From positions 2,824-66,823 of the forward strand of contig CANRHN010000003.1 of assembly GCA_947630425.1 (NCBI GenBank): a stretch of 64,000 nt of DNA, written 5' to 3'. This DNA is from an uncultured Clostridia bacterium. Lineage in GTDB: Bacteria > Bacillota > Clostridia > Christensenellales > CAG-314. Shown piece by piece: positions 5,951-46,971 of the stretch. The notes under the pieces were generated by a model. That model made no database searches. It was not told the origin of the DNA and saw nothing but the letters and a program-made list of their open reading frames with translations. The first letter of the stretch is position 1. Every line of letters begins with the position of its first letter. The position numbers and the translations under genes are program-made.

Positions 5951-6615
5951 GTCGCATCGGGCGACTCCGTGAAAAAAGGGCTTCGAGGTGTCGCATCGGG
6001 TATTCGCCGCAAAACGGGCTTCGCAGTGCCGCTCGCATATTCCCCGAAAAAAGGCTTCGCTCGCACTTCGCGCCCTTTAGTCGAGGGACATATTCGACTT
6101 TGCGCGAAATGCTCGTTGCAGATTATTTTTCGGGAAACATACTCGCGGCTATGGTGAATAAGGTTTGGGTGTTTTTCTTCGTAAAAATTTATTGTGAGGT
6201 GTTCGTTGCAGATTATTTTTCACGGAGTGCCCTCGCTCCCGGGTAAACAAGGTTGGGGTGGACTTCTTCGTAGAGGTGTGTAGTAAGCTTACAGCTGTTC
6301 CAAAAGCCTTCTCTTGAGGACGCAAGAGAAGGGGGACCGCAAAGGGGACCCCAACGAGTTGAGTATAACGAAACTTGTTGGGGAGAGGAACAGCTGACCG
6401 ATAGCGGAACCGACCGAGCCTTGCGCGAGGTTGGTGCTATCGAGGGAAAGCTGTGACGAGCGGTGGATGAGTTTCGACACAAAGGGGGGCTTTCCCTTTG
6501 AGAGGAAAAGTGTCGCTCTGGTATTCGCCCAAACGCAAATTTTTATTTGATATTACCTCTCGCGGAGTGTTCGACCGTCTTGTAACATTCCCGAAGTAAT
6601 AGATTTTTCTCCTAA
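5951..6615. repeat. Mosaic interspersed repeat block RB1 (gene-free)
   Basis: Starts right after the malG-like stop with GTCGCATCGGG (twice). Contains GGTATTCGCCGCAAAACGGGCTTCGC, two copies of the 36-nt GTTGCAGATTATTTTTC... motif (6115-6150, 6205-6240) and a long-form core module. The same pieces recur in the other blocks listed below. Confidence 0.9.
6307..6478 (+). repeat. Core module, long form (HP2, then HP1 arms enclosing a 119-nt insert, then the GGATGAGTTTCGAC tail)
   Basis: CCTTCTCTTG-AGGACG-CAAGAGAAGG hairpin, then GGGACCGC, a 119-nt insert (6341-6459), then GCGGTGGATGAGTTTCGAC. Near-identical copies at 36990-37160 (-) and 45883-46054 (-). Confidence 0.9.
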
Positions 6616-23358: not shown

Positions 23359-24542
23359 CAAATTTCGACAAAACGGTCAATCGTCGCAACACCGATTCTC
23401 TTAAATGGAACGTGGACGAGGGCGAATTGCCCATGTGGGTGGCGGACATGGATTTTCCCACCGCACCCTGCGTTACCGAGGCTGTAGTCGCCAAGGCAAA
23501 GCGCGGAGTGTTCGGCTACGAGGAAGTGCCCGCAAGGTGGTTTGACGCTTACGTAAATTGGTGGAAAACGCGACACGGCTGGGAAATGAACAAAAATTGG
23601 CTGTGCTTTGTGACGGGCGTTGTGCCCGCTATCACAAGTTGCGTCAAAAGTCTGTCAAAGGAGGGCGACGGCGTTTGCGTGATGACGCCCGTCTACGACA
23701 TATTTTTTCATTCGATAGAAAACACCGGCAGAAAGGTGGTGGAAAGTCTCCTTGAGTACGACGGCAGAACCTACCGCATAGACTTTGACAACCTCGAAAG
23801 GTTGTTGGCTTTGCCCAACGTTTCGCTGTTGATACTGTGCAATCCGCACAACCCCGTGGGGCGCGTGTGGAGCAAAGAGGAGCTTGCAAGGGTGGGAGAG
23901 CTGTGCGCACGGCACGGCGTGACGGTAATTTCCGACGAAATTCATTGCGACCTTACCGAGCCCGACGCGGACTATGTTCCGTTTGCCTCTGCGTCACCCG
24001 TCTGCGCCGAAATTTCCGTAACCGCCATTTCCGCAAGCAAGGCGTTCAATCTTGCGGGTATGCAGTCGGCGGCGGTCGCCGTTCCCGACGAAAAACTGCG
24101 CGAAAAGGTGGTGCGCCACCTCAACTACGACGAGGTTGCCGAGCCAAACAGCTTTGCCTGCGTTGCAACGGTGGCGGCTTTTACCGAGGGAGAGCAGTGG
24201 TTGGAAGAGCTGCGAGCTTACCTTTCCGAAAACAGAAAGACCGTTTTGCGTTTTCTTTCGGAGCAGCTGCCGCAGCTTAAAGCGGTGGAACAACAGGCGA
24301 CCTACCTGCTGTGGGTGGATTGTTCGGCAATCACCGACGACTCGCAGTCTCTTTGCAATCACATTCGCCATCAAACGGGACTGTATCTCAACTGCGGCGC
24401 AAAGTACCGAGGAAACGGCAACAGCTTTGTGCGTATCAACGTGGCTTGTCCGCGCGCAACGCTCAATGACGGTTTGCAACGGTTGCGCAAAGGCATATTG
24501 AGTTTTGTTCCGACCAAACGCGAGGCGGTCGGATGGACTTGA
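23355..24542 (+). CDS. patB: MalY/PatB-family PLP-dependent C-S lyase (cystathionine beta-lyase-like aminotransferase)
   Basis: 395 aa. N-terminal FDKTVNRRNTDSLKW, the SASKAFNLAG lysine region and LCNPHNPVGRVW are class I/II aminotransferase MalY/PatB features. The last 11 codons lie inside the 254-bp repeat. Confidence 0.85.
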   Translation: MTNFDKTVNRRNTDSLKWNVDEGELPMWVADMDFPTAPCVTEAVVAKAKRGVFGYEEVPARWFDAYVNWWKTRHGWEMNKNWLCFVTGVVPAITSCVKSLSKEGDGVCVMTPVYDIFFHSIENTGRKVVESLLEYDGRTYRIDFDNLERLLALPNVSLLILCNPHNPVGRVWSKEELARVGELCARHGVTVISDEIHCDLTEPDADYVPFASASPVCAEISVTAISASKAFNLAGMQSAAVAVPDEKLREKVVRHLNYDEVAEPNSFACVATVAAFTEGEQWLEELRAYLSENRKTVLRFLSEQLPQLKAVEQQATYLLWVDCSAITDDSQSLCNHIRHQTGLYLNCGAKYRGNGNSFVRINVACPRATLNDGLQRLRKGILSFVPTKREAVGWT

Positions 24543-24762
24543 CACTCCTCAAGAAAAGAAATAGAAGCTATTTAGAAAATTTTTCAATAAAAAGGGGCAG
24601 ACACCTCTGTGCTTGGTGTCTGCGCCATCGTGACCCTACGGGCGCGTTGCGCCGCCTCGGTCGGACTACTAAGGAAGCCGCTGCACGCGGCTTCATTTTT
24701 TAGACTTAGCTGGGGGTCTTGCCCCAGCACCCCCAAGTTTGGCTGCAATCTCGGTACACGCC
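24509..24762 (+). repeat. Left copy of a perfect 254-bp inverted repeat (partner 37286-37539)
   Basis: Base-by-base comparison of 24509-24762 with the reverse complement of 37286-37539 showed no mismatch. Includes the patB 3-prime end, the hairpin GCAGACACC/GGTGTCTGC, a terminator and CTGGGGGTCTTGCCCCAG. Confidence 0.9.
24674..24701 (+). terminator. Rho-independent terminator downstream of patB (part of a repeated terminator module)
   Basis: GAAGCCGC-TGCAC-GCGGCTTC followed by ATTTTTT. The same GTCGGACTACTAAGGAAGCCGCTGCACGCGGCTTC occurs at 37347-37385 (-) and 51223-51257 (-). Confidence 0.85.
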
Positions 24763-25060
24763 GTCGTCACAACACTCGCTTGACGTTACCATTCGTGCAA
24801 GCACGAACAGTACCAACGTCGCTCGGTTGTTCCTCTCCCACCCAAGTTTCATTCTTCAACTTGTGTGGGGTCCCTGTGTGCAGACGGAATTTTCGCTTTT
24901 CCCGCTACTACGGACGAAACGTCCGTCTCCGCGCGCGAAAATTCCGAGTTAATATAGAAGTCGGCTTCTATATGTGTTTTTCTTCATGTTTGAATATTGG
25001 TTTTTTTAGTCTTTTTTTTTGACTTTTTGCCATAAAAAATAGCTTCCCTTTCGAGATGAA
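24763..25060. repeat. Mosaic repeat block RB2
   Basis: Degenerate fragment of the long-form insert (24818-24878), GCAGACGGAATTTTCGC...GGACGAAACGTCCGTCTCCGCGCGCGAAAATTCCGAG, the palindrome ATATAGAAG-TCGG-CTTCTATAT (24952-24973) and a T-rich tail. It is colinear with the reverse complement of 50960-51180. Confidence 0.85.
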
Positions 25061-27204: not shown

Positions 27205-27412
27205 TTGGGTATTCGCCGCAAAACGGGCTTCGCTTCGGGCTACGCCCTCGTTGCAGATTGTTTTGCGTGCGAACACCCGCGCTCCCTGTTGAACAAGGTT
27301 GGGGGTGTACCTCTTCGTAGGAGTGTGTAGCAAGCTTACAGCTGTTCCAAAAGCCTTCTCTTGAGGACGCAAGAGAAGGGGGACCGCCGAACGGCGGTGG
27401 ATGAGTTTCGAC
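27205..27412 (+). repeat. Mosaic repeat block RB3 (composite unit ending in a short core module)
   Basis: GGTATTCGCCGCAAAACGGGCTTCGC, GTTGCAGATTGTTTTGCGTGCGAACACCCGCGCTCC (27251-27286), TGTTGAACAAGGTTGGGGGTGT, CTTCGTAGGAGTGTGTAGCAAGCTTACAGCTGTTCCAAAAG, then the core module at 27354-27412. Confidence 0.9.
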
Positions 27413-27470
27413 ACATAGGATTACTCATAAGAGGAGAAGTGGCGTAGCGACGAAGTTTCGCTTTTCATTT

Positions 27471-27585
27471 GCAGCAAAACCGAAGCAAAACCGAAGCGAA
27501 ATCGAAGCAAAACGTAAGCAAAATCGAAGCAAAATCGAAGCGAAATCGAAGCAAAACCGAAGCAAAACCGAAGCAAAACCGAAGC
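27471..27585. repeat. Tandem repeat, 11-nt unit x10 (GAAGCAAAACC and variants)
   Basis: Read directly: GCAGCAAAACC GAAGCAAAACC GAAGCGAAATC GAAGCAAAACG TAAGCAAAATC GAAGCAAAATC GAAGCGAAATC GAAGCAAAACC x3. The unit is not a multiple of 3. Confidence 0.95.
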
Positions 27586-27669
27586 TAATGTAAATGATAA
27601 TGAAAATGGTAATGATAATGTTAATGTAAACGAGAGTGAGAATGAAAATGAAAATGAAAACGAAAATGC
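27586..27669. repeat. Tandem repeat, 6-nt unit x14 (TAATGT/AAATGA/GAATGA...)
   Basis: Read directly. Contiguous with the 11-mer array. There is no start codon after the in-frame TAA at 27515 on the + strand. Confidence 0.9.
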
Positions 27670-31902: not shown

Positions 31903-33421
31903 CTACATGCCGCTGCGCTTTGTGCTGAACATGCTGCTGATTTTGATAGAAACGGCGTTGGTGATGACAATTGTGGTACTCATCTCCATTCGCAACCAAT
32001 ATTCTTTCATTGCGGAGCTTGTCACGCAGCTGGTGGTTGCCGTCGTCATCATTGCAAGCAACGACAACCCCGACTACAAAGTGCCTTGGGTGTTTTTTGT
32101 GCTGGTGCTGCCCGTTATAGGGTTTATGTTTTACTTTATGTTCTACTCGCGCAGACTCAGCCCCATGCAAAGGCGCAGACTGCGGCAGTTTTGGAGTGAC
32201 GAAGGCAATTTGAAGGACAGCCCCGACTGCATGCGTTTGCAGGCGGAAAGCGAGGAGGCATATTCGCAGGCGCTTTTGCTCAAAAAACTTTCCAAGGCGC
32301 ACATCTACACGGATACCGTCGTTACCTACTTTCCCCTCGGCGACAAGCTCTTTCCCGCGTTGCTGGAGGACCTCAAAAGGGCGCAAAGCTTCATCTTTTT
32401 GGAGTTTTTCATAATTCAACAGGGAGAAATGTGGAACGCCATATTGGACGTTCTCAAACAAAAGGCAAGTCAGGGCGTGGACGTGAGGGTGGCTTACGAC
32501 GACATCGGTTGTATGCGCACTCTGCCCGGCGACTACTTCAAACGCCTGAACAAAATGGGCGTCAAATGCGTCACGTTTGCTCGGCTGCGCGCTCAAGCCA
32601 ACAACAAATTCAACAACCGCAACCACCGCAAAATTGCCGTCATAGACGGCAGAGTGGGCTACACGGGCGGCATTAACCTTGCGGACGAGTATATAAACAG
32701 GCGCAGACGTTTCGGGCATTGGAAGGACGTGGGCGTGCGTCTGGAAGGCAACGCCGTCAACGAATTGACGCGTTTGTTCCTTGCCGACTACCTTTCCAAC
32801 GCGCCCGCCAAGCAGGCCTCCAAGGAAAACGCCGAACGGTTTTTCCTGACGGAGGAACGTCCCACGCGCGAGGGGTACGTTGTTCCCTTCGGCGACGGAC
32901 CCAAGCCCATCTACGACAGACAGGTAGTCAAGCTTGCCATTATGAATTTGCTCGGGCAAGCCAAAAATCACGTGTACATGATGACGCCTTACCTTATCAT
33001 AGACAACGAGCTGACGCAGGCGATAGAAAACGCCGCCCTGCGCGGTGTGGACGTCAAGCTGATAACTCCGCACATTCCCGACAAAAAATTGGTGTTTACA
33101 ATGACGCGCAGCTACTACAAAAGACTGATGAACGCCGGCGTGAGCATTTACGAGTACACGCCGGGGTTTGTACACGCAAAAATGTACCTTGCCGACGGCG
33201 AAACGGCTATGATCGGCACTGCCAATCTCGACTACAGGTCGCTTGTTCACCATTTTGAAAACGTGGTGTGGATGTTCAGAGTGCCCGCCATTGCGGACAT
33301 GGAGTCGGATTTTGCCGATACGCTCGACAAGTGTACGGAAGTGGACGAGGAAATGGCGGCGCAGCATTTGCCCGGCAGGTTCGTCCGAGCCATTGTAAAG
33401 ATATTTGCGCCATTGCTGTAA
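31883..33421 (+). CDS. cls: Cardiolipin synthase (PLD superfamily)
   Basis: Two HKD motifs (NHRKIAVIDGRVGYTGGINLADEY and FVHAKMYLADGETAMIGTANLDYRS) and N-terminal TM helices. ATG at 31883 (MKKKYRSY) after GAGAGG. Overlaps the RND gene end by 20 nt. Confidence 0.9.
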   Translation: MKKKYRSYMPLRFVLNMLLILIETALVMTIVVLISIRNQYSFIAELVTQLVVAVVIIASNDNPDYKVPWVFFVLVLPVIGFMFYFMFYSRRLSPMQRRRLRQFWSDEGNLKDSPDCMRLQAESEEAYSQALLLKKLSKAHIYTDTVVTYFPLGDKLFPALLEDLKRAQSFIFLEFFIIQQGEMWNAILDVLKQKASQGVDVRVAYDDIGCMRTLPGDYFKRLNKMGVKCVTFARLRAQANNKFNNRNHRKIAVIDGRVGYTGGINLADEYINRRRRFGHWKDVGVRLEGNAVNELTRLFLADYLSNAPAKQASKENAERFFLTEERPTREGYVVPFGDGPKPIYDRQVVKLAIMNLLGQAKNHVYMMTPYLIIDNELTQAIENAALRGVDVKLITPHIPDKKLVFTMTRSYYKRLMNAGVSIYEYTPGFVHAKMYLADGETAMIGTANLDYRSLVHHFENVVWMFRVPAIADMESDFADTLDKCTEVDEEMAAQHLPGRFVRAIVKIFAPLL

Positions 33422-33637
33422 CGCTGACGCTTCCGACCAAACGTGTGTCGCTCGGGCAACTCCGTGAAAAAAGGGCTTCGCTCACACCTCGCGCCCTTTA
33501 GTCGTGGAACATAAAAGACTTTGCGCGAGGTGTTCGTTGCAGATTATTTTTCACGGAGTACCCTCGCTCCTTGGTATATAAGGTTTGGGTGTACCACTTC
33601 GTAGGAGTGTATAGCAATTTTACAGCTGTTCCAAAAG

Positions 33638-33696
33638 CCTTCTCTTGAGGACGCAAGAGAAGGGGGACCGCCGAACGGCGGTGGATGAGTTTCGAC
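33638..33696 (+). repeat. Core module, short form
   Basis: CCTTCTCTTGAGGACGCAAGAGAAGGGGGACCGCCGAACGGCGGTGGATGAGTTTCGAC. Confidence 0.92.
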
Positions 33697-33794
33697 ACAA
33701 AATAAATATTTCGTCCCTTTTCCCCTTCGGGGACTTCCCCTCTCGAAGGGGAAGCTATAATTTCCTGATAGCAAGCTAACAGCTGTTCTAAAAG

Positions 33795-33853
33795 CCTTCT
33801 CTTGAGGACGCAAGAGAAGGGGGACCGCCGAACGGCGGTGGATGAGTTTCGAC
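33795..33853 (+). repeat. Core module, short form
   Basis: Identical 59-nt sequence to 33638-33696. Confidence 0.92.
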
Positions 33854-33885
33854 TCAAAGGGACGAAGTGAGAGTATTTCGCAAAA

Positions 33886-34020
33886 GGGGACCCCAACGAG
33901 TTGAGTATAACGAAACTTGTTGGGGAGAGGAACAGCCGACTGTTAGCGGAACCGACCGAGCATTGCGCGAGGTTGGTACTATCGAGGGAAAGCTGTGACG
34001 AGCGGTGGATGAGTTTCGAC
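33886..34020 (+). repeat. Long-form insert plus tail (lacks HP2 and the left HP1 arm)
   Basis: GGGGACCCCAACGAGTTGAGTATAACGAAACTTGTTGGGGAGAGGAACAGCCGAC...GTGACGAGCGGTGGATGAGTTTCGAC. Confidence 0.9.
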
Positions 34021-34137
34021 ACACAGGAGCTTCCCCTCGATGGTTGAATAGAGACGAAACGTCCGTCTCCGCGCGCGAAAATTCCGAGTTTGTTTTGACA
34101 GCTTGTTTCTTAACATATTCTGCAACTGCATACAAAG

Positions 34138-34193
34138 CCTTCTCTTGAGGACGCAAGAGAAGGGGGACCGCGACGCGGTGGATGAGTTTCGAC
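34138..34193 (+). repeat. Core module, short form with variant HP1 (ACCGC-GAC-GCGGT)
   Basis: CCTTCTCTTGAGGACGCAAGAGAAGGGGGACCGCGACGCGGTGGATGAGTTTCGAC. Confidence 0.9.
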
Positions 34194-34492
34194 ACAAAGG
34201 AGCTTCCCCACGAGAATGGAAGTCTCGCAAATGGGTTTCCTGCGCCCCGGGGGAGGACCGCAACGCTCGGTACACGCCCGAGGTTGCGGGAAATTAGTTT
34301 GAATTTTCGACCACATGCGGGGCGGTAAACGTTATTTTTGTGCAAAAGTGCAAAAAAGTATTGAAAATTATTGGATTTTGTAGTATTGTATTACTGACAT
34401 AATATATAAGGGGAGTTTGCCCGTTTTTCCTTTTTTGCGCGAAAAACTCGGCATGGCGGCAAAACGCCCTTCCCCGTTGCAAAGGAGCAGCA

Positions 34493-36046
34493 ATGAACAA
34501 TTTTCCCAAATGGCTGAACACGGCAGTTTTTTATCAGGTGTACCCGCAAAGCTTTTGCGACGGCAACGGCGACGGTATAGGAGACCTGAACGGGCTTGTT
34601 TCCGAGCTTGACTACATCTCGAACACGGGCTTCAATGCAATCTGGCTCAACCCCTGCTTCGATTCTCCCTTCAAGGACGCAGGGTACGACGTCAAAAACT
34701 ACTTTAAGGTTGCGCCGCGCTATGGCACAAACGACGACCTTGTGCGGCTTTTCAAGGAAGCGCACAATCGCGGCATGCACGTAATTTTGGACCTTGTGCC
34801 CGGACACACCTCCGACAAATGCCGTTGGTTCAAGCAGAGCGCAAAGCCAACGCGCAACAGGTACAGCGACCGCTACATTTGGACCAACAGCGGCTGGGCG
34901 CGTCCCGAGGGCTACAATTGGGTGACGGGCAACGCCGACCGTAACGGCACGTACATGCTCAATTTCTTTCTCAATCAGCCCGCCTTGAACTACGGCTTCA
35001 ATGTGGTAACAGACCCCGATTGGCAAATTTCCTACCGAGACAAGCGCGTCAAGCCCACTCTGGAAGCCATGAAAAAGGTTATGCGCTTTTGGCTGGACAA
35101 GGGCGCGGACGGCTTCCGCGTAGACATGGCGGACAGCCTTGTCAAAAACGACCCCGACAAAACGGCGACGGCTTGGCTGTGGCGCAAGGTTCGCGCAATG
35201 CTTGACAGACACTACCCCGAAGCGGTGTTGGTTTCCGAGTGGTGCAACGCGCCCGTTGCCATCAACAAGGCAAGGTTTCACTGCGACTTTTTGCTCAATC
35301 ACGGAAACAAGCTGACGGACTACGCCTTTTACAAGCGGGACAAAGAGGGCAAAAGCACGGCTTACTTTTGCAAAACGGCGCACGTTTCGGCTAAAAACAT
35401 GTTGAGCGTTTACCTTCGCGAGTTGAACCAAACGCGCAACAACGGCTATATCAGCGTGATAAGCGGCAATCACGACGTGGAACGACTGAGCTACTTTTTG
35501 GACGACAGCGAAAGGCGCGTTGCGTTTGCGTTTTTGCTTACGTTGCCCGGTGTGCCCTTTGTGTACTACGGCGACGAGATAGGCATGCGTTACATTCCGC
35601 AGCAATCCAAGGAAGGCGGTTTTCACCGCACGGGAAGCAGAACCCCGATGCAGTGGGACGACGCTCTGCCCAACATGGGCTTTTCCACGGCAAAGGCAAA
35701 CAAGCTGTACCTCGATGTAGACAGAACTCCCGACGCGCCCTCTGCGGCTGGGCAAATGCGGGACAAGTCCTCTCTTTGGAACGAGGTCCACACCTTGTTG
35801 GAGCTTCGCCGCACTCAAACGGATCTGCAGTCCGACGGAGAATTGGAAGTGACGGAGTGCGGTGAGAACGGCGTTTTGTGTTACCGCCGCGGACAACATA
35901 CCTATGTTGCAATCAACCCGACGGACGAGGAGAGGAAACTTTCCGACGTTGTGGGCAGCAAACGACTGTTTGAAATCGGACGCGCAACGGACGGCGACGG
36001 CTTTGCCTTGCTTGCGCCCCAAACGGTTGTCGTTTTTGAAAAATAA
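34493..36046 (+). CDS. GH13 alpha-amylase family enzyme (alpha-glucosidase/oligo-1,6-glucosidase-like)
   Basis: 517 aa. YQVYPQSFCDGNGDGIGDLNG, DLVPGHTS, GFRVDMADS, VSEW and SGNHDVERL are GH13 regions. Confidence 0.85.
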   Translation: MNNFPKWLNTAVFYQVYPQSFCDGNGDGIGDLNGLVSELDYISNTGFNAIWLNPCFDSPFKDAGYDVKNYFKVAPRYGTNDDLVRLFKEAHNRGMHVILDLVPGHTSDKCRWFKQSAKPTRNRYSDRYIWTNSGWARPEGYNWVTGNADRNGTYMLNFFLNQPALNYGFNVVTDPDWQISYRDKRVKPTLEAMKKVMRFWLDKGADGFRVDMADSLVKNDPDKTATAWLWRKVRAMLDRHYPEAVLVSEWCNAPVAINKARFHCDFLLNHGNKLTDYAFYKRDKEGKSTAYFCKTAHVSAKNMLSVYLRELNQTRNNGYISVISGNHDVERLSYFLDDSERRVAFAFLLTLPGVPFVYYGDEIGMRYIPQQSKEGGFHRTGSRTPMQWDDALPNMGFSTAKANKLYLDVDRTPDAPSAAGQMRDKSSLWNEVHTLLELRRTQTDLQSDGELEVTECGENGVLCYRRGQHTYVAINPTDEERKLSDVVGSKRLFEIGRATDGDGFALLAPQTVVVFEK

Positions 36047-36055
36047 GGAGGAAGC

Positions 36056-36904
36056 ATGAGTAACAAACCAATCGTTGCGCTTATATACGACTTCGACAAC
36101 ACCCTTTCCACGCGCGATATGCAGGAATTTACCTTCATTCCCGCGTTGGGAATGTCTCCGCAGGAATTTTGGTCCAAGTGCGACCAAATTTCGCACGAAC
36201 GCAGCATGGACCATATTTTGGCGTACATGTACCTTATGGCGCAAAAAGCGCGGGAAAAGGGCATAAGCATCACGCCGGAGGCATTGCGCGCCATGGGCAA
36301 GGACGTTCAGTTTTTCGACGGAGTGGAAACTTGGTTCAAACGCATAAACGATTTTGGCGCAAGCGTCGGGCTGGAGGTGCGGCACTATATCATCTCTTGC
36401 GGACTTAAGGCAATGATAGAGGGCTGCCCGATCGGTCATGAGTTTTACAACATCTTTGCCTGCGACTACGTATACGACGAAAACGGTCAGGTGATGTGGC
36501 CCGGCGTTGCCATCAACTACACAAGCAAAACGCAATTTCTTTACCGCATAAACAAGGGCGTAGAGGACGTGGGCGAACACAAAAAGCTCAACATGTACAT
36601 GCCCGCAGGCGAACGCGTTGTGCCCTTTGAAAACATGATCTACATCGGCGACGGACTTACCGACGTGCCCAGCATGAAGCTTACGCGCAGTCGCGGAGGC
36701 TATGCCGTGGGCGTTTACCGCAACCCCGAGGACGCCACCTACCTTGTAAAAGAAGATCGCGTGGATTTCTATGTGGAAGGCAACTACACCGAAAACAGCG
36801 CAATGGACGTGGCAATCAAGGCGATATTGAACCGTATCAGCGCGCGTATTCGCTTCAAAGAGCTGTCGGAAAACAGCTACAAATCGGCAATAACCAAGAA
36901 GTAG
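36056..36904 (+). CDS. HAD-superfamily hydrolase
   Basis: 282 aa. Motif I YDFDNTL near the N-terminus and motif IV-like YIGDGLTDVP. 9 nt downstream of the GH13 gene. Confidence 0.75.
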   Translation: MSNKPIVALIYDFDNTLSTRDMQEFTFIPALGMSPQEFWSKCDQISHERSMDHILAYMYLMAQKAREKGISITPEALRAMGKDVQFFDGVETWFKRINDFGASVGLEVRHYIISCGLKAMIEGCPIGHEFYNIFACDYVYDENGQVMWPGVAINYTSKTQFLYRINKGVEDVGEHKKLNMYMPAGERVVPFENMIYIGDGLTDVPSMKLTRSRGGYAVGVYRNPEDATYLVKEDRVDFYVEGNYTENSAMDVAIKAILNRISARIRFKELSENSYKSAITKK

Positions 36905-37285
36905 CCCAAACCGCAAAAAAAACACCCTCGACCTTGTTCAACAGGGAGCGAGGGTGTTCGCATACAAAACGATCCGGAATATCGGGCATGTCGAAACTCA
37001 TCCACCGCTCGTCACAGCTTTCCCTCGATAGCACCAACCTCGCACAAGGCTCGGTCGGTTCCGCTATCGGTCGGCTGTTCCTCTCCCCAACAAGTTTCGT
37101 TATACTCAACTCGTTGGGGTCCCCGTTATAGCCCCCTTCTCTTGCGTCCTCAAGAGAAGGCTTGGTATGCAGTTGCAGAATATGTTAAGAAACAAGCTGT
37201 CAAAACAAACTCGGTATTTTCGCGCGCGGAGACGGACGTTTCGTCCGTAGTAGCGGGAAAAGCGAAAATTCCGTCTGCAATCGCG
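36905..37285 (-). repeat. Mosaic repeat block RB5
   Basis: Hairpin AACACCCTCG...CGAGGGTGTT with an A8/T8 run, a long-form core module at 36990-37160 (-), and GACGAAACGTCCGTCTCCGCGCGCGAAAATACCGAG in reverse orientation. Confidence 0.9.
36990..37160 (-). repeat. Core module, long form
   Basis: GTCGAAACTCATCCACCGC, then the insert, then CCTTCTCTTGCGTCCTCAAGAGAAGG read on the + strand. Confidence 0.9.
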
Positions 37286-37539
37286 GGCGTGTACCGAGAT
37301 TGCAGCCAAACTTGGGGGTGCTGGGGCAAGACCCCCAGCTAAGTCTAAAAAATGAAGCCGCGTGCAGCGGCTTCCTTAGTAGTCCGACCGAGGCGGCGCA
37401 ACGCGCCCGTAGGGTCACGATGGCGCAGACACCAAGCACAGAGGTGTCTGCCCCTTTTTATTGAAAAATTTTCTAAATAGCTTCTATTTCTTTTCTTGAG
37501 GAGTGTCAAGTCCATCCGACCGCCTCGCGTTTGGTCGGA
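37286..37539 (-). repeat. Right copy of the perfect 254-bp inverted repeat (includes an orphan 34-nt copy of the patB 3-prime end)
   Basis: The reverse complement is identical to 24509-24762. The spurious ORF 37506..37733 (-) ends in PTKREAVGWT exactly like patB. Confidence 0.9.
37347..37374 (-). terminator. Terminator copy within the right inverted repeat
   Basis: Reverse complement of the 24674-24701 hairpin plus T-run. Confidence 0.7.
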
Positions 37540-37628
37540 GTATCCTTTTTTGGTGCAATTTCGACAGAAATTGCGCCTTTTTTACGTCCGTTGTGCGCTA
37601 CAATGGTGGGTGACAACGGAGGTTCATA

Positions 37629-38480
37629 ATGTACTGCAAACGCATACTCATTTTGCAACAGACCAACGCGCGCTTTGCCGAAAGGGGCAGGGAGCTGTGC
37701 GGCTTGGTCAAGCTGGTAAACAACGGCAAGCAATCAACGGACGTTACGGTGTTTGTCACCAATGCCGACGTGCGTATGTTGGGAGAGTGGTGGCTGCTGC
37801 TCTCTTTCGATCGCGTGCCGCAAGCGGTTCAGCTTGACACCCTCGACAACTGCACTTTTTCCTTGCCGTTGCAGCCGTTGGAAAAAGTCAGCTGTCTGTT
37901 GGTAAAAAGAGAGGACAGGTGCTTCGAGGCGGCGCGCGCATACCTCGGCGACAACGCTTGCGACGCTCTCTACCGTCAGATGGACGCGCTGTGTCGCACA
38001 CCCCTCGACGCGGCAAGCAGTCCTTACGAGCAGTTTGTGGCTTCCACCGAAAACTTTTACGGCAAAGTGGACGTGGAAAAGCTCAAACTCAAGGCGGACA
38101 GCCGATACAAAAGCGTCTCCGACTACAGCAACGCTTTTGAACGGTTCTATGCCGCGGGCGCGCACTCCGACTACTACGAAAGCGTCAAGGCGGAAATCGG
38201 CAAGGTGTTTGTGGAATTTCCGCCCTACTATCCGCTTATTCGCAAGTACCGAGAGGCGTTTTTTGTGCGCATAGATTTTCCCAAGTCGGACAAGTACTTT
38301 GTGTTGGGCGTTTTGCAAAAGGAAGGGCGTATTCGCTACATCTGCTACGGCTTGCCCGCCGAGCGCGACGGCGTTACCGACAAGGACTTTGTTTACGTAG
38401 AAAACGCTCCGACGGCGTTTTGGATGCTGTTTCAGGACGCCGATTCGGGGCAAATTTCCGCGATAAACGGGTTGGTTTAG
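37629..38480 (+). CDS. Hypothetical protein (283 aa)
   Basis: GGAGG RBS and coding-like composition. I recognise no motif. Confidence 0.6.
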   Translation: MYCKRILILQQTNARFAERGRELCGLVKLVNNGKQSTDVTVFVTNADVRMLGEWWLLLSFDRVPQAVQLDTLDNCTFSLPLQPLEKVSCLLVKREDRCFEAARAYLGDNACDALYRQMDALCRTPLDAASSPYEQFVASTENFYGKVDVEKLKLKADSRYKSVSDYSNAFERFYAAGAHSDYYESVKAEIGKVFVEFPPYYPLIRKYREAFFVRIDFPKSDKYFVLGVLQKEGRIRYICYGLPAERDGVTDKDFVYVENAPTAFWMLFQDADSGQISAINGLV

Positions 38481-38531
38481 AAATATTTGTATTTATTGCG
38501 CGTCGATCCAAACAGATTGGCGCAAAATTGT

Positions 38532-38560
38532 TGCAATTTTTATGTTTTTGTACTATAATC
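38532..38560 (+). promoter_or_regulatory. Putative promoter of the lipoprotein gene
   Basis: TTGCAA (38532-38537), 17 nt, TATAAT (38555-38560). Confidence 0.6.
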
Positions 38561-38593
38561 TATCTCGTATGTACTTACTTAAGGAGTAGTGTA

Positions 38594-40099
38594 ATGAAAA
38601 ACGCAACAGTGAAAAAATCACTTATACTTGTTGTCGCGCTTTTGCTTTGCGTAACGGTGATGTTTGCCGCCTGCACAGACGATGACTTTACGAAAGTTGA
38701 AAACCCGCAGACCGCAGCTCCCGAAGGCAACGGCGGCATTGCGGTGGCTTACGGCGATTGGCTGTACTATATCAACGGCTACACTGCCGACGTAACGGCG
38801 GACAACACCTACAGCGACGACGTGCTTACCTCACCGCGCGTGGGATCGGTTGTGCGCATCAAGCTTGCCGCTTTGGAAGGAATTTTTGAAATTCAGGACG
38901 ACAAAAACAAGACTTCTACGCAAAAGACGGAAGAAATTGCCGACTATGTTCGCAAAAACGCGCAAACGGTTGTGCCCAGATTTTACTACAGCGGCAACAC
39001 AACGACAACGCAATTTACGGGACTGTACATCTTTAATGACAGGCTGTACATCACCACGCCCAACGACGAACTGACCGCGGGCGGCGACAAGCAGACAAGT
39101 CAGCTTGTGCTTGCAAGCTACAAAATGGACGGCTCTGACGAAAAGCGTCACTATGTTTTTGAGGATAACACCGTTCAAATTTGCCTGACGGAAGCGGACG
39201 GCAATGTGGTAGCCACCTATCTTACGGGAAACAAGCTGTACAAGCTGGACGTAGCTGCGGGAAAGAGTACCGAAGTTACCGTCAACGGCGAAGATGAAGG
39301 TAAGGGCGTGGATAATGCCATCAACGGCACTCCCGTTTGGGACGTTGCGGGCAAATGCTTGTTCTTTATCGACAAGATGTACAACATCGGCAAGCTCAGC
39401 TTCGGCGCGGACAAGTACGACATAATCCTCAAAAACGAGGGCGAAGTAAAGGTTCACGAGCACGACGGCGTAAAGCAGGCAGAAGCGGGCAAAATCAGCT
39501 ACACGCTTACCGCCGCAAACCTCGGTCAGGTCTACTACACCAAGAGCGATTCCGACGCGCCCAGCTCCGTCAACGGTGCCAGGCTGTACTATGCCAAGGA
39601 CGCAACCGACAACAAATTGGTCGCTCTCAACACAACGATTTCTTCCGGTATCGTTTGGAAGGACGGCAGAGTGGTAACGTCAAGTACCGTAAAGAGCAGT
39701 AACCCCGACGACAACAGCACCTACTACAAGCTGGAGATAACCAAAAACGCCACGGGCGAAAAGGAAAGCATTTTGATTCCTGCGGCAAACGACAGCTCCA
39801 TAACGCTTAGCCGTATCGAGGGCGACACGTTGTACTACACAGCCAACAGCGTCAGCTACAGGCTTGATTTGAGCGCGACAAAACGTACCCCCGTTGCCTA
39901 TGCAAAGAGTCTCGGCGCAGCGGCAGGTTGGGCTGTTCCCGACTTTGTGGACGTCACAAGCGGCGAAAACACAATTCACTATGTGATCACGGCAACCTCG
40001 GGCGGCGACTTGACTGTGACGAAGTTCGACCCGAGCGACCCCAACAAAACGCAAAGCTCTCCCTCGCTTTTGCTTGCGTCCAAGCAAGACGAAAACTGA
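38594..40099 (+). CDS. Lipoprotein with DUF5050-like beta-propeller repeats
   Basis: AAGGAG RBS. Signal peptide with lipobox (VTVMFAAC). Recurrent LYY/LYI blades (GDWLYYINGY, DRLYITTPND, GNKLYKLD, GQVYYTKSD, GARLYYAKD, GDTLYYTANS). The ORF-track start at 38420 is unlikely. Confidence 0.7.
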   Translation: MKNATVKKSLILVVALLLCVTVMFAACTDDDFTKVENPQTAAPEGNGGIAVAYGDWLYYINGYTADVTADNTYSDDVLTSPRVGSVVRIKLAALEGIFEIQDDKNKTSTQKTEEIADYVRKNAQTVVPRFYYSGNTTTTQFTGLYIFNDRLYITTPNDELTAGGDKQTSQLVLASYKMDGSDEKRHYVFEDNTVQICLTEADGNVVATYLTGNKLYKLDVAAGKSTEVTVNGEDEGKGVDNAINGTPVWDVAGKCLFFIDKMYNIGKLSFGADKYDIILKNEGEVKVHEHDGVKQAEAGKISYTLTAANLGQVYYTKSDSDAPSSVNGARLYYAKDATDNKLVALNTTISSGIVWKDGRVVTSSTVKSSNPDDNSTYYKLEITKNATGEKESILIPAANDSSITLSRIEGDTLYYTANSVSYRLDLSATKRTPVAYAKSLGAAAGWAVPDFVDVTSGENTIHYVITATSGGDLTVTKFDPSDPNKTQSSPSLLLASKQDEN

Positions 40100-40174
40100 G
40101 CCGACCCCTGTGCGGCGGTTGATTGCTTGCTACTGCGTAACGCATGCGCAATCAACGGTTAGATTTACAACATT

Positions 40175-40213
40175 TAAGATACCGACTTCTCCGTCTGAAG
40201 TCGGTATCTTTTT
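40175..40213 (+). terminator. Rho-independent terminator
   Basis: AAGATACCGACTTC-TCCGTCT-GAAGTCGGTATCTT followed by TTTTG. Confidence 0.88.
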
Positions 40214-40242
40214 GTGTTAAGGGTCTTTTTTGCGCGCAGTTG

Positions 40243-40271
40243 TTGCAATTTGGCGGCGTGTGCGCTACAAT
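40243..40271 (+). promoter_or_regulatory. Putative promoter of the riboswitch-DUF4430 unit
   Basis: TTGCAA (40243-40248), 17 nt, TACAAT (40266-40271). Confidence 0.6.
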
Positions 40272-40279
40272 ATACTCAA

Positions 40280-40512
40280 GATCGTTATGGCGCGGGTTGC
40301 GCATGCTGAGCGCATTTGCGGGGAAACAACGTGCAAATCGTTGACAGTCCCGCTGAGGTAAAGTGTTGCCTGTTGCCAAGGCAGCAAACAAGTCCTAACG
40401 CCCGACCGCGCCGAAAAGCACTTCTTCGACGAAAGACAGCGCTTTTGTGTGTTCGACGTTTTTCCAAGTGAACGTCGTCATTCTTGTGCTGTCCGAAAGA
40501 CGGCATTTTTTT
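40280..40512 (+). promoter_or_regulatory. Probable cobalamin riboswitch with terminator
   Basis: GGGAAACAACGTGCAAATCGTTGACAGTCCCGCTGAGGTAA (40321-40361) resembles the GGGAA..GGTG.AAATCC...C.G.CCCGC..CTG core. There is a weaker B12-box-like AAGTCCTAACGCCCGACC. Terminator TGCTGTC-CGAAA-GACGGCA plus T7 at 40487-40512. The downstream genes fit B12 uptake. Confidence 0.55.
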
Positions 40513-40561
40513 GTTTTGCGAGGCGTGCTTGCGGTCTACTACAAAAAAAGGAGACAAAACA

Positions 40562-41059
40562 ATGAAAAGAACAAAACTGTTGACGTGGATTTTGACAGTG
40601 GCGATTATCGTTGCGGCAAGCATGGCGTTGGTCGCCTGCGTAGACAAGCCGCAAGTCAAGCAATTGACGGAACTTACTTTGCCGCAGCTTGACGACGATC
40701 AAATGGCTGTCATCATCAAAAACGGCGAAAAGGACTACACAAGCTACACGGTAACGCTCACCGACCAACTCAAAACGGGCGAGGACGTGTTGAACTATCT
40801 GGCGGAGAAAGCCGACCTGCATGTCGATTGGAAAGAGAGCGCGTACGGCAAGTACATCAACGAGATAGGCGGTGCAAAATTGCATGAAACAAACGAATAC
40901 GTTGCTGTCTTTACCAGCGTGGCAGGAGACAAAAGCACGGAAGCGGGCGCTTTGTCCTATCAAATAGGCGACATTACCGTAGTGTATGCGGGCAAGGGCA
41001 TTTCGGAGCTGTCCGTAGAAGCGGGCGCGGTGATCTACTTTGAGATAGTTACCTACTGA
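40562..41059 (+). CDS. DUF4430 (transcobalamin-like) lipoprotein
   Basis: AGGAG RBS and lipobox MALVAC. YGKYINEIGG ... YVAVFTS ... EAGAVIYFEIVTY follows the DUF4430 pattern. Confidence 0.75.
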   Translation: MKRTKLLTWILTVAIIVAASMALVACVDKPQVKQLTELTLPQLDDDQMAVIIKNGEKDYTSYTVTLTDQLKTGEDVLNYLAEKADLHVDWKESAYGKYINEIGGAKLHETNEYVAVFTSVAGDKSTEAGALSYQIGDITVVYAGKGISELSVEAGAVIYFEIVTY

Positions 41060-41060
41060 C

Positions 41061-41771
41061 GTGAAAAAGAACTCATCAAAAACAAAATATAACGCCGCGC
41101 TCATTGCCGTTTCCGCAATGTATGCGGCGTTGATAGTGGGCGGCAAGGAAGCGCTTGCGGTGTTGCCCAACGTAGAGGTGGTAACGCTGCTTGTCGCCAC
41201 CTGCGCCTACGTGTGGGGAGCGGCGGCGGTGTTTCCTGCCGTAAACGTGTTTGTGGCGGTGGATATGGCAATATGGGGTGTGAATACTTGGATCATATCC
41301 TACTTTGTCCATTGGAATTTTGTTGCATTGTGCTTTTGGCTGCTGAGCAAAATTCGCTACAGGCACAAAGCCGTCGAGGTGACCGTCGTAACGGCGGCGG
41401 CAGTGGCGTTGACGGTGCTTTTCGGCGTGCTGACCTCGTTTGTCGACGTGCTTGTGGGCTACACGGGCAAGGGCTTTTTTGCCGACTTCGACAACGTTTT
41501 TGCGCGCTTCGCCGTGATGTACGTCAACGGGGTCTACTTTTATGTCACGCAGACGGTGTGCAATCTTGTGTTGTTTTCAACGGCTTTTTTGCCCCTTGTC
41601 AGGCTCAACGTCAAGGCAAAGCTGCGCTTGCTCGGAGAGGAGACGGCAACGCCGAGCTCCGACGGGGAAGCCATCGAGAAAAACGCGCGGGCAGACGGTT
41701 CTGCGCAGGAAAACCCCGCCGCAAAATCCGTTGCCGATACCTCTTCGGGCGACGATACCGACCTCAAATAG
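41061..41771 (+). CDS. ECF-transporter S-component-like membrane protein (possible cobalamin-specific, CbrT-like)
   Basis: 236 aa, about six TM helices. GTG start 1 nt after the upstream stop. Context (B12 riboswitch plus DUF4430) suggests the substrate. The acidic, low-complexity C-terminal tail is unusual. Confidence 0.55.
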   Translation: MKKNSSKTKYNAALIAVSAMYAALIVGGKEALAVLPNVEVVTLLVATCAYVWGAAAVFPAVNVFVAVDMAIWGVNTWIISYFVHWNFVALCFWLLSKIRYRHKAVEVTVVTAAAVALTVLFGVLTSFVDVLVGYTGKGFFADFDNVFARFAVMYVNGVYFYVTQTVCNLVLFSTAFLPLVRLNVKAKLRLLGEETATPSSDGEAIEKNARADGSAQENPAAKSVADTSSGDDTDLK

Positions 41772-41863
41772 ATTGACAAACAGCCACGAATAAACTATAC
41801 TAAAAAATGAAGGTAAAAACGTAATTCGTACCACTTGACGACAAGATTTGATTGGCTTTGGTA

Positions 41864-41919
41864 GTCGAAACTCATCCACCGCGTCGCGGTCCCCCTTCCC
41901 TTGCATCCTCAAGGGAAGG
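41864..41919 (-). repeat. Core module, short variant (HP2 CCTTCCCTTG/CAAGGGAAGG)
   Basis: GTCGAAACTCATCCACCGCGTCGCGGTCCCCCTTCCCTTGCATCCTCAAGGGAAGG, followed by CTAAGTGCGGCGAA. Confidence 0.9.
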
Positions 41920-42056
41920 CTAAGTGCGGCGAATGGTACTTGTCTCTTACATCGTTAAGGGTGGCATCAAAAGCCACAATGTGTTCTATGGAACAAGTGT
42001 CGATGGTTTGAGATAAGTTCGTTCGTAAGGAGCAAGTCGGCAACTGTTCAATCAAG

Positions 42057-42113
42057 CCTTCTCTTGAGGACGCAAGAGAAGGTGTCACCGTCAGGTGACG
42101 AATGAGTTTCGAC
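42057..42113 (+). repeat. Core module, short form with replaced HP1 (GTCACC-GTCA-GGTGAC)
   Basis: CCTTCTCTTGAGGACGCAAGAGAAGGTGTCACCGTCAGGTGACGAATGAGTTTCGAC. Ends 26 nt before the DUF559 ATG. Confidence 0.88.
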
Positions 42114-42139
42114 CTACAAAACCAACAAAATTCAGCACC

Positions 42140-42505
42140 ATGATTGTTCGTCATAGCAACAGGCTCACAAAAATTTCTCAAACATTGCGAAGGAACATGA
42201 CCAAAGAAGAAAAACATCTTTGGTACGATTACTTCAAGTTGTTGAACATCACAGTACACAGACAATATGTGATAGAAGATTTTGTGGCGGATTTTTACAT
42301 TCCGTGTGCCAATATTGTGGTGGAGTTGGACGGTAGCCAACACTACGAACCGAGTATGGTCTTGCAAGACGCCATTCGTACAGAACGTATGGAACGGTAT
42401 GGATTGACGGTTGTGCGCTTTCCAAACAATGCGATAAATTATAATTTTCGCAATGTGTGCGAATATTTGAACACATTGATAGCAAAGAGCAATCGGCTAC
42501 AATAG
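42140..42505 (+). CDS. DUF559 (Vsr-like) endonuclease-domain protein
   Basis: 121 aa. LRRNMTKEEKHLW...FVADFYIPCANIVVELDGSQH...DAIRTERMERYGLTVVRFPNN fits the DUF559 pattern. The ORF-track GTG at 42095 lies inside the repeat module, so ATG at 42140 is preferred. No obvious SD. Lower G+C than neighbours by eye. Confidence 0.8.
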   Translation: MIVRHSNRLTKISQTLRRNMTKEEKHLWYDYFKLLNITVHRQYVIEDFVADFYIPCANIVVELDGSQHYEPSMVLQDAIRTERMERYGLTVVRFPNNAINYNFRNVCEYLNTLIAKSNRLQ

Positions 42506-42560
42506 TCGAAACTCATCCACCGCGTCGCGGTCCCCCTTCCCTTGCGTCGTCAAGGGAAGG
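42505..42560 (-). repeat. Core module, short variant; first base is the last base of the DUF559 stop codon
   Basis: TA-GTCGAAACTCATCCACCGCGTCGCGGTCCCCCTTCCCTTGCGTCGTCAAGGGAAGG, then CTAAGTGCGGCGAA. Confidence 0.9.
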
Positions 42561-42650
42561 CTAAGTGCGGCGAACGATTTTCTTTCCTTCGTCGTAGCTT
42601 TTACAGTGTAGCACCGAACTGTAGTTACACGCTTGGAACTGCTACCATTC

Positions 42651-42739
42651 AGCTGTTCCTCTCCCCAACAAGTTTCGTTATACTCAACTCGTTGGGGTCC
42701 CCTTTGCGGTCCCCCTTCCCTTGCGTCGTCAAGGGAAGG
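42651..42739 (-). repeat. Truncated long-form module with variant HP2
   Basis: AGCTGTTCCTCTCCCCAACAAGTTTCGTTATACTCAACTCGTTGGGGTCCCCTTTGCGGTCCCCCTTCCCTTGCGTCGTCAAGGGAAGG, then CTAAGTGCGGCGAA. Confidence 0.88.
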
Positions 42740-42813
42740 CTAAGTGCGGCGAACGGCAGTAAACCTCGCTTGCAATTTTCAACATCACGCAAATACTCAT
42801 TTGGGAGAAAAAT

Positions 42814-44250: not shown

Positions 44251-44288
44251 TGTCGCCCAGACGCGCGGCGTTCGGTAAAATTTGCAAC

Positions 44289-44321: not shown

Positions 44322-44343
44322 GTGCATTGATGTTTGTGGTCAA

Positions 44344-45642: not shown

Positions 45643-46971
45643 GTATATTCCGACCAAAGTGGAGCGAGGGTACTCCGTGAAAAATAATCTGCAAGACTTT
45701 TAGAACAACCGTTAGTTTGCTATCAGGAAATTATAGCTTCCCCACGAGTGTGGGCGTGGTGCGTAAAGCCAATCACCACAGTGTGGTGTTGGTAGCAGCC
45801 ACGCGCTCGCCGCTACTGACTTACCGCGGCGAGCGGTCCTTGTTGTCCCCGAAGGGGAAAAGGGACGAAATATTTACTTTGTGTCGAAACTCATCCACCG
45901 CTCGTCACAGCATTCCCTCGATAGCACCAACCTCGCGCAAGGCTCGGTCGGTTCCGCTATCGGTCGGCTGTTCCTCTCCCCAACAAGCTTCGTTATACTC
46001 AACTCGTTGGGGTCCCCTTTGCGGTCCCCCTTCTCTTGCGTCCTCAAGAGAAGGCTTTGTATGCGGCTTTTAGCTTGCTACACACAAAATAGTTGTGCCC
46101 ACTCGAAAGGGAAAGCTTATATGGTTATACGAAAATAAACATCGTCCCTATCGTCTGCTTTCGCAGACACTTCCCCACTCGTGGGGAAGCTACGCCTCTG
46201 TGACATACCTTGTTTCAAAACAAAATGTTTTAATTAAAGTTTCAACATTGTTATACTTTGCGCAACAAAGCAGATTATATCCGTGGCACAAACACAGAGC
46301 GAGTGTGTTCACCGAAAAATAATCTGCAGAGGTGCAATTAAGCATATATTCTTTTTTTGGATAAGTGGGAGCAAGTGCGTTGCGCAACAAAACAATCTGC
46401 AACTAACTACACTTTTCAACACAGCCGCGAGTGTGTTTCCCGAAAAATAATCTGCAGCGAGTACTTCATAATAAAAAACACACCAACCTTGTTTAACACA
46501 GGAGTGCGGGTGTTCGCATGCAAAACAATCTGCAACGAGGGCGTAGCCCGAAGCGAAGCCCGTTTTGCAGCGAATACCCAAGCGACATGCGAAGCCCTTT
46601 TTTCGGGGAATATACGAGCGGCACTGCGAAGCCATTTTGCGGCGATTGCTTGAGTTAAAGTTTTTTACGCTCTTGAAACTTGCCGTTACGAAGAAAAACA
46701 CCCCCGACCTTATTTAACAGGGAGCGAGGGTGTTCGCACGCAAAACAATCTGCAACGCACTACTACGAAGAAGTACACCCCAACCTTATTTACCCGGACG
46801 CGAGGGTACTCCGTGAAAAATAATCTGCAACGAACGCCTCACAATAAATTTTTACGAAGAAAAACACCCCCGACCTTATTTAACAGGGAGCGAGGGTGTT
46901 CGCACGCAAAACAATCTGCAACGAGGGCGTAGCCCGAAGCGAAGCCGTTTTGCGGCGAATACCCGATGCGA
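45643..46971. repeat. Mosaic repeat block RB8 (1.3 kb, gene-free)
   Basis: TCCGACCAAA at 45649-45658. Long-form core module at 45883-46054 (-). Eight copies of the 36-nt motif in reverse orientation (45661-45695, 46297-46330, 46374-46402, 46422-46458, 46501-46536, 46721-46756, 46796-46831, 46887-46922). Ends with CCCGATGCGAC abutting the mscS stop. Confidence 0.9.
45883..46054 (-). repeat. Core module, long form
   Basis: GTCGAAACTCATCCACCGCTCGTCACAGC...GGGGTCCCCTTTGCGGTCCCCCTTCTCTTGCGTCCTCAAGAGAAGG. Confidence 0.9.

Follow-up and report, generated by a model that had tools for sequence, protein, structure and literature searches.

Introduction

The DNA repeats named BoxC, PIT or TMECO have been known in Escherichia coli since the 1990s and are present in hundreds of genomes; to our knowledge, neither a function nor a means of spread has been found for them. 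We likewise know of no role assigned to DUF559, a very large family of proteins. The BoxC/PIT elements were reportedly described by Bachellier et al. in 1999 and by Hoyne et al. in 2000. The TMECO/BoxC/PIT sequence is a purine-motif intrastrand triplex of the form CCCTCNCCC-N3-6-GGGNGAGGG-N3-GGGNGAGGG (Holder et al. 2015, PMC4666352), and TMECO loci are unusually rearranged, with no mobility gene seen near them (PMC4666352). Here we describe a repeated two-hairpin module in a 64-kb stretch of the chromosome of an uncultured Clostridia bacterium (hereafter the window) and a small cassette in which two inverted modules enclose a DUF559 nuclease gene. The module is a predicted intrastrand-triplex repeat, a variant of the BoxC/PIT/TMECO kind. 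We consider it probable that it belongs to a triplex class of DNA repeats, that the inverted modules bound a 0.5-kb DUF559 cassette, and that solo modules, arrays and doublets derive from the ends of that cassette.

Results and Discussion

A predicted triplex in the module

The module has the block order pyrimidine (Y) block, purine (R) block, mirror R block. The first two form hairpin 2 (HP2), in which the pyrimidine arm CCTTCTCTTG is paired to the purine arm CAAGAGAAGG; a second hairpin, HP1, is located in the second loop; and the tail, GGATGAGTTT, mirrors the purine arm of HP2 with T opposite A at three places. When G.G-C, A.A-T and T.A-T are counted as valid, using the triad rules only, nine of the ten triads of the window consensus are valid, and the same count of valid purine-motif triads is obtained from the tail and R-arm of the individual copy 33635-33696. 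When 19 module types from all loci are taken together, register 0 gives 151 valid triads out of 172, while other registers give 3-6 of 8-10; none of 5000 permutations of the tails among modules reached the 151-triad total, and within two sequence sub-groups 1 and 4 of 5000 permutations reached theirs. Therefore the tail co-varies with HP2 across genomes, which explains why the hairpins change and yet the tail seemed fixed in this one genome. Examples of such joint changes are HP2 CCTCCCTT/AAGGGAGG with tail GGAGGGAT, GCCCCCTT/AAGGGGGC with TGGGGGAT, CCCCCCTT/AAGGGGGG with GGGGGGAT, CTTTCTCTTG/CAAGAGAAAG with GAATGAGTTT and, in Shinella, CCTTCTCCCC/GGGGAGAAGG with GGATGAGGGG. On the strength of this covariation the tail, which an initial annotation made from the sequence of the window had treated as a free-standing sequence tag, reads instead as the third strand of a triplex.

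The hairpins themselves are preserved through compensatory change, as that annotation had proposed. In an alignment of 17 sequences including relatives, the pairing of HP2 is complete (100% of cells), with four pairs altered on both sides and a single G-U, and the covariation score was reached by none of 500 shuffles. The HP2 variant CCTTCCCTTG/CAAGGGAAGG, present in three window copies, and the HP1 variant GTCACC/GGTGAC of the copy at 42054 had been read correctly. In the covariance-model alignment HP1 is only 58% paired because its two types pair in different registers; individually, each copy forms the hairpin.

The likeness to the BoxC/PIT/TMECO repeats lies first in the succession of Y block, loop, complementary R block, loop and mirror R block with T allowed opposite A, the three-block design that defines the intrastrand-triplex class. 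It extends to the genomic habit of these repeats: the module is multi-copy, strictly intergenic and without strand bias, it occupies variable loci, and it occurs both solo and in inverted pairs, of which there is one in the window, around the DUF559 gene, and there are many in relatives. The module departs from the class in its loops. The first is of 6 nt and the second of 17-20 nt with its own hairpin, reaching ~135 nt in long forms, whereas the loops of TMECO are of 3-6 nt and 3 nt and the ITxF search allows 1-6 nt. Furthermore, the blocks of TMECO are G/C-rich and of 9 nt, with a second loop of 3 nt, while the window module has 10-nt A/T-richer blocks, a second loop of 17-20 nt that is itself a hairpin or holds a 115-nt insert, and four further bases, CGAC, that are invariant. 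Because the published search was limited to loops of 1-6 nt (PMC4666352), it would miss the window form.

The repeat kind is known, and what appear to be new are the long-second-loop variant and the association with DUF559. The description of the module as an unrecognised family stands insofar as Rfam 15 gave no match at the gathering score over the whole window and none at E up to 10 for 33400-34400; it fails in that the three-block kind, BoxC/PIT/TMECO, has already been described (PMC4666352).

The DUF559 cassette

The cassette encompasses nucleotides 42054-42562 and consists of a module on the plus strand, 26 nt, an open reading frame (ORF) of 121 amino acids and a module on the minus strand, with both tails pointing inward and the stop codon overlapping the right-end tail. 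A DUF559 gene had been listed among those to be sought elsewhere in the genome; the one that the window itself holds, between inverted modules, had been overlooked. The ORF product matches PF04480 with an E value of 1.7e-18 and 66.9 bits (cut-off 20.6) and is related to PDB 3hrl (E 2e-6). The top fold match of its AlphaFold model (predicted local distance difference test score 85) is the homing endonuclease I-Bth0305I (3r3p), followed by 3hrl, and Vsr (1vsr) is only the 18th. The residues D51, E62, D64 and H68, which make up the catalytic D...ExD...H motif, are invariant across 40 DUF559 homologues, and the dN/dS ratio (nonsynonymous to synonymous substitution rates) between the window gene and its 91%-identical homologue in locus L014 is 0.12 (compared loci are designated by L numbers). 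To judge from its sequence, the gene is intact and under purifying selection. With the Vsr-fold homing endonucleases (I-Bth0305I, 3r3p) and with Vsr it shares the fold, the catalytic motif and a selfish, insertion-like distribution; it differs in that it lies outside any intron or intein and is bracketed by repeats.

A promoter-like site lies 5' of the cassette and of proS (Table 1), and a weaker one, TTGATA-16-TACAAT at 42476-42503, is found inside the 3' end of the DUF559 ORF and directed outward to proS; the cassette may sit in the proS leader. Many close DUF559 homologues are on very short contigs of 0.5-2 kb, a pattern that assembly breaks at gene-flanking repeats would produce.

DUF559 genes and triplex repeats across phyla

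The contexts of two sets of DUF559 homologues were compared. The close set, from gut Clostridia, included homologues at 91, 68, 59, 57, 56, 53 and 51% identity, and the distant set, at 27-36% identity, those of Deinococcus, Sinorhizobium, Shinella, Sphingomonas, Photobacterium, E. coli and three cyanobacteria. The cassette arrangement seen in the window is also found in L014-16, L017, L028, L031, L036, L041, L044, L045 and L046. Flanking inverted repeats, scored by Smith-Waterman with a threshold of 20 or more, were detected at nine of 17 DUF559 genes and at one of 99 neighbouring control genes, whose median score was 8.5 (Fisher's exact p = 3e-8); most of the remaining DUF559 genes have an inverted pair or a module immediately adjoining. 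The only high-scoring control gene, which encodes a polysaccharide deacetylase in L028, is flanked at 7310-7390 and 8950-9030 by a palindromic TGTCATCCTGAGCG...CGAAGGATC... family.

A mechanical triplex finder, set to a perfect 8-nt Y/R hairpin, a third block with at most one bad triad and a second loop of up to 25 nt, recovers the modules and was positive at 14 of 18 DUF559 loci, distributed among Clostridia, Deinococcus, Proteobacteria and Cyanobacteria; motifs are present at the other four and fail the strict settings alone. Triplex motifs amount to 2.78 per kb within 250 nt of DUF559 and 0.145 per kb elsewhere in the same loci, a ~19-fold difference. The repeat type at the flanks of DUF559 genes tracks the clade of the protein. 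In a published screen, DUF559 genes were 14-fold enriched among genes located between inverted repeats (PMC9881135).

The relationship includes the described repeats themselves. The E. coli DUF559 gene, ycjD (L035/L040; MG1655 1351039-1351760), overlaps at its 3' end a BoxC/TMECO repeat, a second copy of which is located ~160 nt 3' of the gene; the sequences match published TMECO, so that ycjD abuts genuine TMECO copies, and in MG1655 the 3' end of ycjD and the repeat are partly duplicated. The repeat beside ycjD is found at a median of 16 places per genome in 5,426 E. coli genomes, with counts from 1 to 29. Salmonella reportedly has no TMECO. A gene association is unreported for TMECO (PMC4666352), and in the literature searched nothing was found that connected DUF559, YcjD or COG2852 with repeats, nor were the motif strings found. 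Taken together, the association points to DUF559 as a candidate enzyme for the spread of this class of triplex repeats, a role in which mobilisation by the nuclease is what we infer.

Copies in the window and lineage-specific gain

The window is an ordinary chromosomal stretch (recD2, secA, prfB, proS, murB, whiA, dnaE and transporters), with nearly all genes on the plus strand. The tail GGATGAGTTTCGAC occurs in it 11 times, ten exactly and once with one mismatch, where 0.42 occurrences are expected by chance, and 11 occurrences were reached in none of 100 shuffles. Delimitation of the copies with nhmmer and a covariance model built from 18 copies gave a total of 12 modules, seven complete short, three long and two partial, all of them intergenic, with seven on the plus and five on the minus strand (Table 1). 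The count of 13 or more given initially was too high: near 24818, where a degenerate copy had been placed, only the insert of the long forms matches (24823-24874, 81%), and the copies listed at 33886 and 42651 as ordinary ones are partial. Short modules measure 58-62 nt; the long forms, of ~174 nt, carry a ~115-nt two-hairpin insert (L insert) inside the HP1 stem ACCGC/GCGGT. The long form at 6305-6478 folds with -76.9 kcal/mol (z = -7.0), and its complement is 17 kcal/mol worse. There is one DUF559 gene for the 12 modules. No transposase domain was found in 40 scanned ORFs of the window, which agrees with the initial annotation.

Table 1. Modules, cassette components and related features of the window.
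Feature	Position	Strand	Composition or basis
Long form	6305..6478	+	HP2, HP1 stem ACCGC/GCGGT around two-hairpin ~115-nt insert, tail
Solo short module	27351..27412	+	nhmmer, covariance model
Mosaic array, cls-to-amylase gap	33445..34213	+	Three short modules, one insert-plus-tail copy, other repeated blocks
Short module	33635..33696	+	Y-arm 33638-33647, loop, R-arm 33654-33663, GGG, HP1 33667-33682, tail/third strand (predicted) 33683-33696
Short module	33792..33853	+	nhmmer, covariance model
Partial copy without HP2	33883..34020	+	L insert, HP1 3' arm, tail
Short module, HP1 ACCGC/GCGGT	34135..34193	+	nhmmer, covariance model
Long form, HP1 5' arm degenerate	36990..37162	-	Covariance model
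Promoter-like site TTGACA-17-TATACT	41773..41801	+	5' of cassette and proS; kept in L014; consensus match only
Solo right end	41816..41921	-	Short module 41864-41921 plus ~48 nt resembling 3' untranslated stretch of the DUF559 cassette of relatives
DUF559 cassette left end, short module	42054..42113	+	HP1 GTCACC/GGTGAC, tail GAATGAGTTTCGAC pointing at gene
DUF559 (Vsr-like PD-(D/E)xK) nuclease gene, 121 aa	42140..42505	+	PF04480
DUF559 cassette right end, short module	42505..42562	-	Tail pointing at gene
Truncated long form without tail	42641..42741	-	HP2 and 5' half of insert
Long form	45883..46056	-	Covariance model
L insert (~115 nt, two hairpins)	6341-6458, 33883-33996	+	Nested in module second loop
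L insert (~115 nt, two hairpins)	37012-37127, 45905-46020	-	Nested in module second loop
L insert, partial	42641-42705		
L insert, partial	24823-24874		81% match

Within 33432-34290, in the gap between cls and the amylase gene, four tails end at 33696, 33853, 34020 and 34193, at intervals of 157, 167 and 173 nt, exactly as first annotated. Nearly every base of the array 33445-34213 matches other sites of the window, and the partial copy 33883-34020 shows 94-96% identity with the inserts of the long forms. Repeats occupy 4.4 kb of the window in total and are exclusively intergenic. These results uphold the earlier picture of a mosaic of recurrent pieces filling the intergenic gaps and of a dense, structured, interspersed repeat family of the sort of the repetitive extragenic palindromes (REP), bacterial interspersed mosaic elements or Correia elements.

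Locus L009, from a rabbit-gut metagenome-assembled genome (MAG), is syntenic with window positions 32873-42486 at 70-76% nucleotide identity. The cls-to-amylase gap is ~90 nt in L009, where it consists of a stop codon, a terminator hairpin and a promoter, versus ~915 nt in the window, and the L009 gap orthologous to that holding the long form 36990-37162 is much shorter. Over the shared 8 kb, modules are found in L009 solely around one small gene, the DUF559 cassette; the solo right end 41816-41921 has 82% identity to L009 positions 2-68. Because the L009 gaps are short and modules there are restricted to the cassette, the arrays are, on this comparison of sequences, lineage-specific gains. 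A 19-mer scan of a genome collection found the exact tail elsewhere, besides chance matches, only in two related uncultured Clostridia MAGs from rabbit gut, one of them the MAG of L009; a metagenome scan gave only two chance matches, in a coding region, and plasmids, phages and viral contigs gave no match.

Inverted doublets that lack a gene bear on the origin of the repeats. An inverted doublet of 150 nt in L028 (12640-12790) has HP2, the right HP1 and part of the 5' untranslated region (UTR) in common with the cassette of the same genome; the left HP1 of the doublet has kept the loop while the stem changed compensatorily. In the L004 doublet the entire 3' UTR of the L017 cassette is retained, together with the final 9 nt of its ORF. 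Gene-bearing and gene-less copies thus have terminal inverted repeats in common in both cases (L028 cassette and doublet, L017 cassette and L004 doublet), and since the doublets hold ORF-end and UTR pieces they look like internally deleted cassettes.

Proposed mechanism and alternatives

The repeats are most likely DNA-level selfish elements derived from the ends of DUF559 cassettes. In the mechanism we propose, the tail would fold onto the purine arm of HP2 as a purine-motif third strand, and HP1 would serve as an unusually large second loop that returns the tail to HP2 and tolerates the nested 115-nt insert. The DUF559 nuclease may recognise the folded module, by its structure and tail sequence, on transiently single-stranded DNA and nick it, and repair or replication could then copy the cassette ends to new sites, in trans. 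Such spread would resemble that of REP and REPIN sequences by the REP-associated tyrosine transposases (RAYT), or that of miniature inverted-repeat transposable elements (MITEs) by their transposase. More tentatively, we suggest as a possibility that DUF559 nucleases (YcjD family, Vsr fold) are the missing partner enzymes of BoxC/PIT/TMECO-type repeats across bacterial phyla. The autonomous unit would then be a cassette of ~0.5 kb, with one nuclease gene between two inverted triplex modules, and the solo modules and doublets would descend from it as non-autonomous copies that are recognised in their folded state, as DNA.

The parallel with REP/REPIN-RAYT systems consists of short palindromic intergenic repeats in many copies, inverted doublets, and a single-copy enzyme gene that is bracketed by inverted repeats and co-diversifies with the repeat type. 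The bracketed gene here is, however, a PD-(D/E)xK DUF559 gene and not an HUH/Y1 transposase gene (among the 40 window ORFs), the module has no GTAG/CGTC tag of the kind conserved at the foot of the imperfect, 20-40-bp REP palindromes, its conserved flank being the 14-nt tail, and it includes a third block predicted to form a triplex. With MITEs and their autonomous insertion sequences, e.g. Correia, it shares structured terminal inverted repeats that bound a one-gene unit, shorter gene-less copies with the same ends and internal remnants, and insertions both intergenic and within operons; on the other hand, the cassette has no recognised transposase, DUF559 is not a known transposase family, and many module copies are single ends or direct arrays.

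Several observations weigh against the mechanism proposed or against the triplex itself. In three window copies HP2 changed without the tail following, leaving 8 of 10 triads valid. The cassette ends of L017 keep the tail although HP2 is not pyrimidine/purine there, and therefore the tail of these ends cannot act solely as a third strand. The last four tail bases, CGAC, are invariant and yet lie outside the triad register, and triplex formation by the module is a prediction from triad rules. The third block is gene-proximal in Clostridia and Sphingomonas and gene-distal in Deinococcus; the DUF559 loci sampled are few (18), and the modules were parsed by hand. Most modules of the window lineage are solo and in the same orientation, a pattern left unaccounted for by a mechanism based on doublets, and no clean target-site duplication was readable at the copies, which are embedded in larger repeated blocks. 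Finally, a single-domain nuclease of 121 amino acids cannot perform strand transfer alone. As to target sites, CAAA/ACAAA flanks were considered as duplications and rejected: they recur, but as part of larger repeated blocks, and hence are not independent.

The alternative that survives best is that DUF559 is a passenger of the homing type, which copies only itself into pre-existing repeats or doublets, while the repeats multiply otherwise, for instance by template switching at triplex-stalled forks or through an unlinked enzyme elsewhere in the genome. The homing endonuclease as best structural match, the position of the gene precisely between inverted modules with the ORF end overlapping a tail, and the presence of a single DUF559 gene for 12 window modules would all suit a passenger, as would the block that TMECO poses to polymerases in vitro and its presence at unstable loci (PMC4666352). 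We nevertheless regard this explanation as unlikely: the doublets, which keep ORF-end and UTR pieces, resemble deleted cassettes and not virgin targets, and the restriction of modules to the cassette in the 8 kb of L009, where the window lineage has many, suggests that the cassette came first.

Several facts are hard to reconcile with a host function. If the repeats were structural DNA maintained by the cell, for example as pause sites for replication or recombination or as nucleoid organisers, with DUF559 as a housekeeping triplex-processing nuclease, one would understand that such repeats are widespread and highly conserved (PMC4666352) and that DUF559 is under purifying selection and usually present in one or few copies, but not that inverted modules surround the gene itself. 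The cassettes, moreover, break into conserved operons (paaD/paaZ, sufB/sufC and the carbon monoxide dehydrogenase/acetyl-CoA synthase, CODH/ACS, cluster), arrays are present or absent between close relatives, and published tests saw no promoter, terminator or regulatory role for TMECO (PMC4666352), all of which makes a host role improbable.

As regards the level at which the module acts, short modules have no G-U pairs and both strands fold about equally; relative to the flanking plus-strand genes, seven copies are sense and five antisense; and RNA is said to form no purine-motif triplexes (PMC4666352). The absence of G-U pairs, both orientations, the lack of an Rfam match and of a convincing terminator, and a triplex motif said to be incompatible with RNA point to action of the short module at the DNA level rather than as RNA, and so the structural selection first ascribed to RNA or single-stranded DNA alike is narrowed towards DNA. 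A role of the module at the RNA level, whether in termination, in mRNA stabilisation or as a small RNA, with its hairpins kept for that purpose, is very improbable. In its favour, predicted folds do beat shuffles (short form, z = -3.2; long form, z = -7.0), one strand of the long-form insert folds far better than the other and has G-U pairs, and the complementary strand has HP2 followed by CTTTTGG, a weak terminator-like site. Against it, the module lies in both orientations to transcription, with no T-run after it on its own strand, no Rfam match and no G-U in the short form; its tail-HP2 covariation obeys purine-motif triad rules, which do not describe an RNA structure, and RNA would give no rationale for the inverted arrangement around a gene.

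Three specific candidates were also rejected. An intrinsic terminator gave marginal consensus matches only, on the strand opposite most copies. For a hammerhead ribozyme (CUGAUGAG...CGAAAC in some tails) the boxes do not lie around stem II on one strand, and Rfam was negative. A type III toxin-antitoxin repeat array has no adjoining toxin gene here, nor do the units repeat one sequence head to tail.

The L insert and other features

The L insert is more stable by 14-18 kcal/mol when folded on the module strand, where it makes use of G-U pairs. In L017 (~1266-1400) a diverged version has kept both hairpins compensatorily and is located beside a module, not inside it. The L insert is probably a structured repeat family of its own, which may act as single-stranded DNA or RNA.

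Other interspersed repeat families, e.g. GAGCGAGGGTGTTCG...AAAATAATCTGCAAC, fill 24509-25048, 36915-37539, 44287-46972 and 50975-51281 and recur in L017. The predicted ORFs 44305-44805 and 45073-45591 overlap repeats, have no Pfam match and may not be genes. Just 3' of the solo module, ~13 tandem copies of the 11-nt unit AGCAAAACCGA occupy 27462-27610. The metK gene sits behind an S-adenosylmethionine (SAM) riboswitch (RF00162, 69.9 bits, 13799-13902), just upstream of which is a gene with a Fic/Bro-N domain (12800-13651). A Gut-1 RNA (RF01706, 52.5 bits) adjoins a ZMP/ZTP riboswitch at 3691-3766 (-) of L034, an Oscillospiraceae-like contig; considered as a relative of the module, it was discarded as an unrelated UGAAA-hairpin motif.

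Implications

The link between DUF559 and the repeats, extending from gut Clostridia to ycjD of E. coli K-12, gives both a testable hypothesis in a tractable organism. If DUF559 nucleases are indeed the partner enzymes of these repeats, a PD-(D/E)xK nuclease and a DNA triplex would together make up a mobile or self-propagating element of a new class, and the genomic instability reported at triplex repeats would also be explained. Since a long structured second loop escapes existing triplex searches, the class may be much larger than catalogued.

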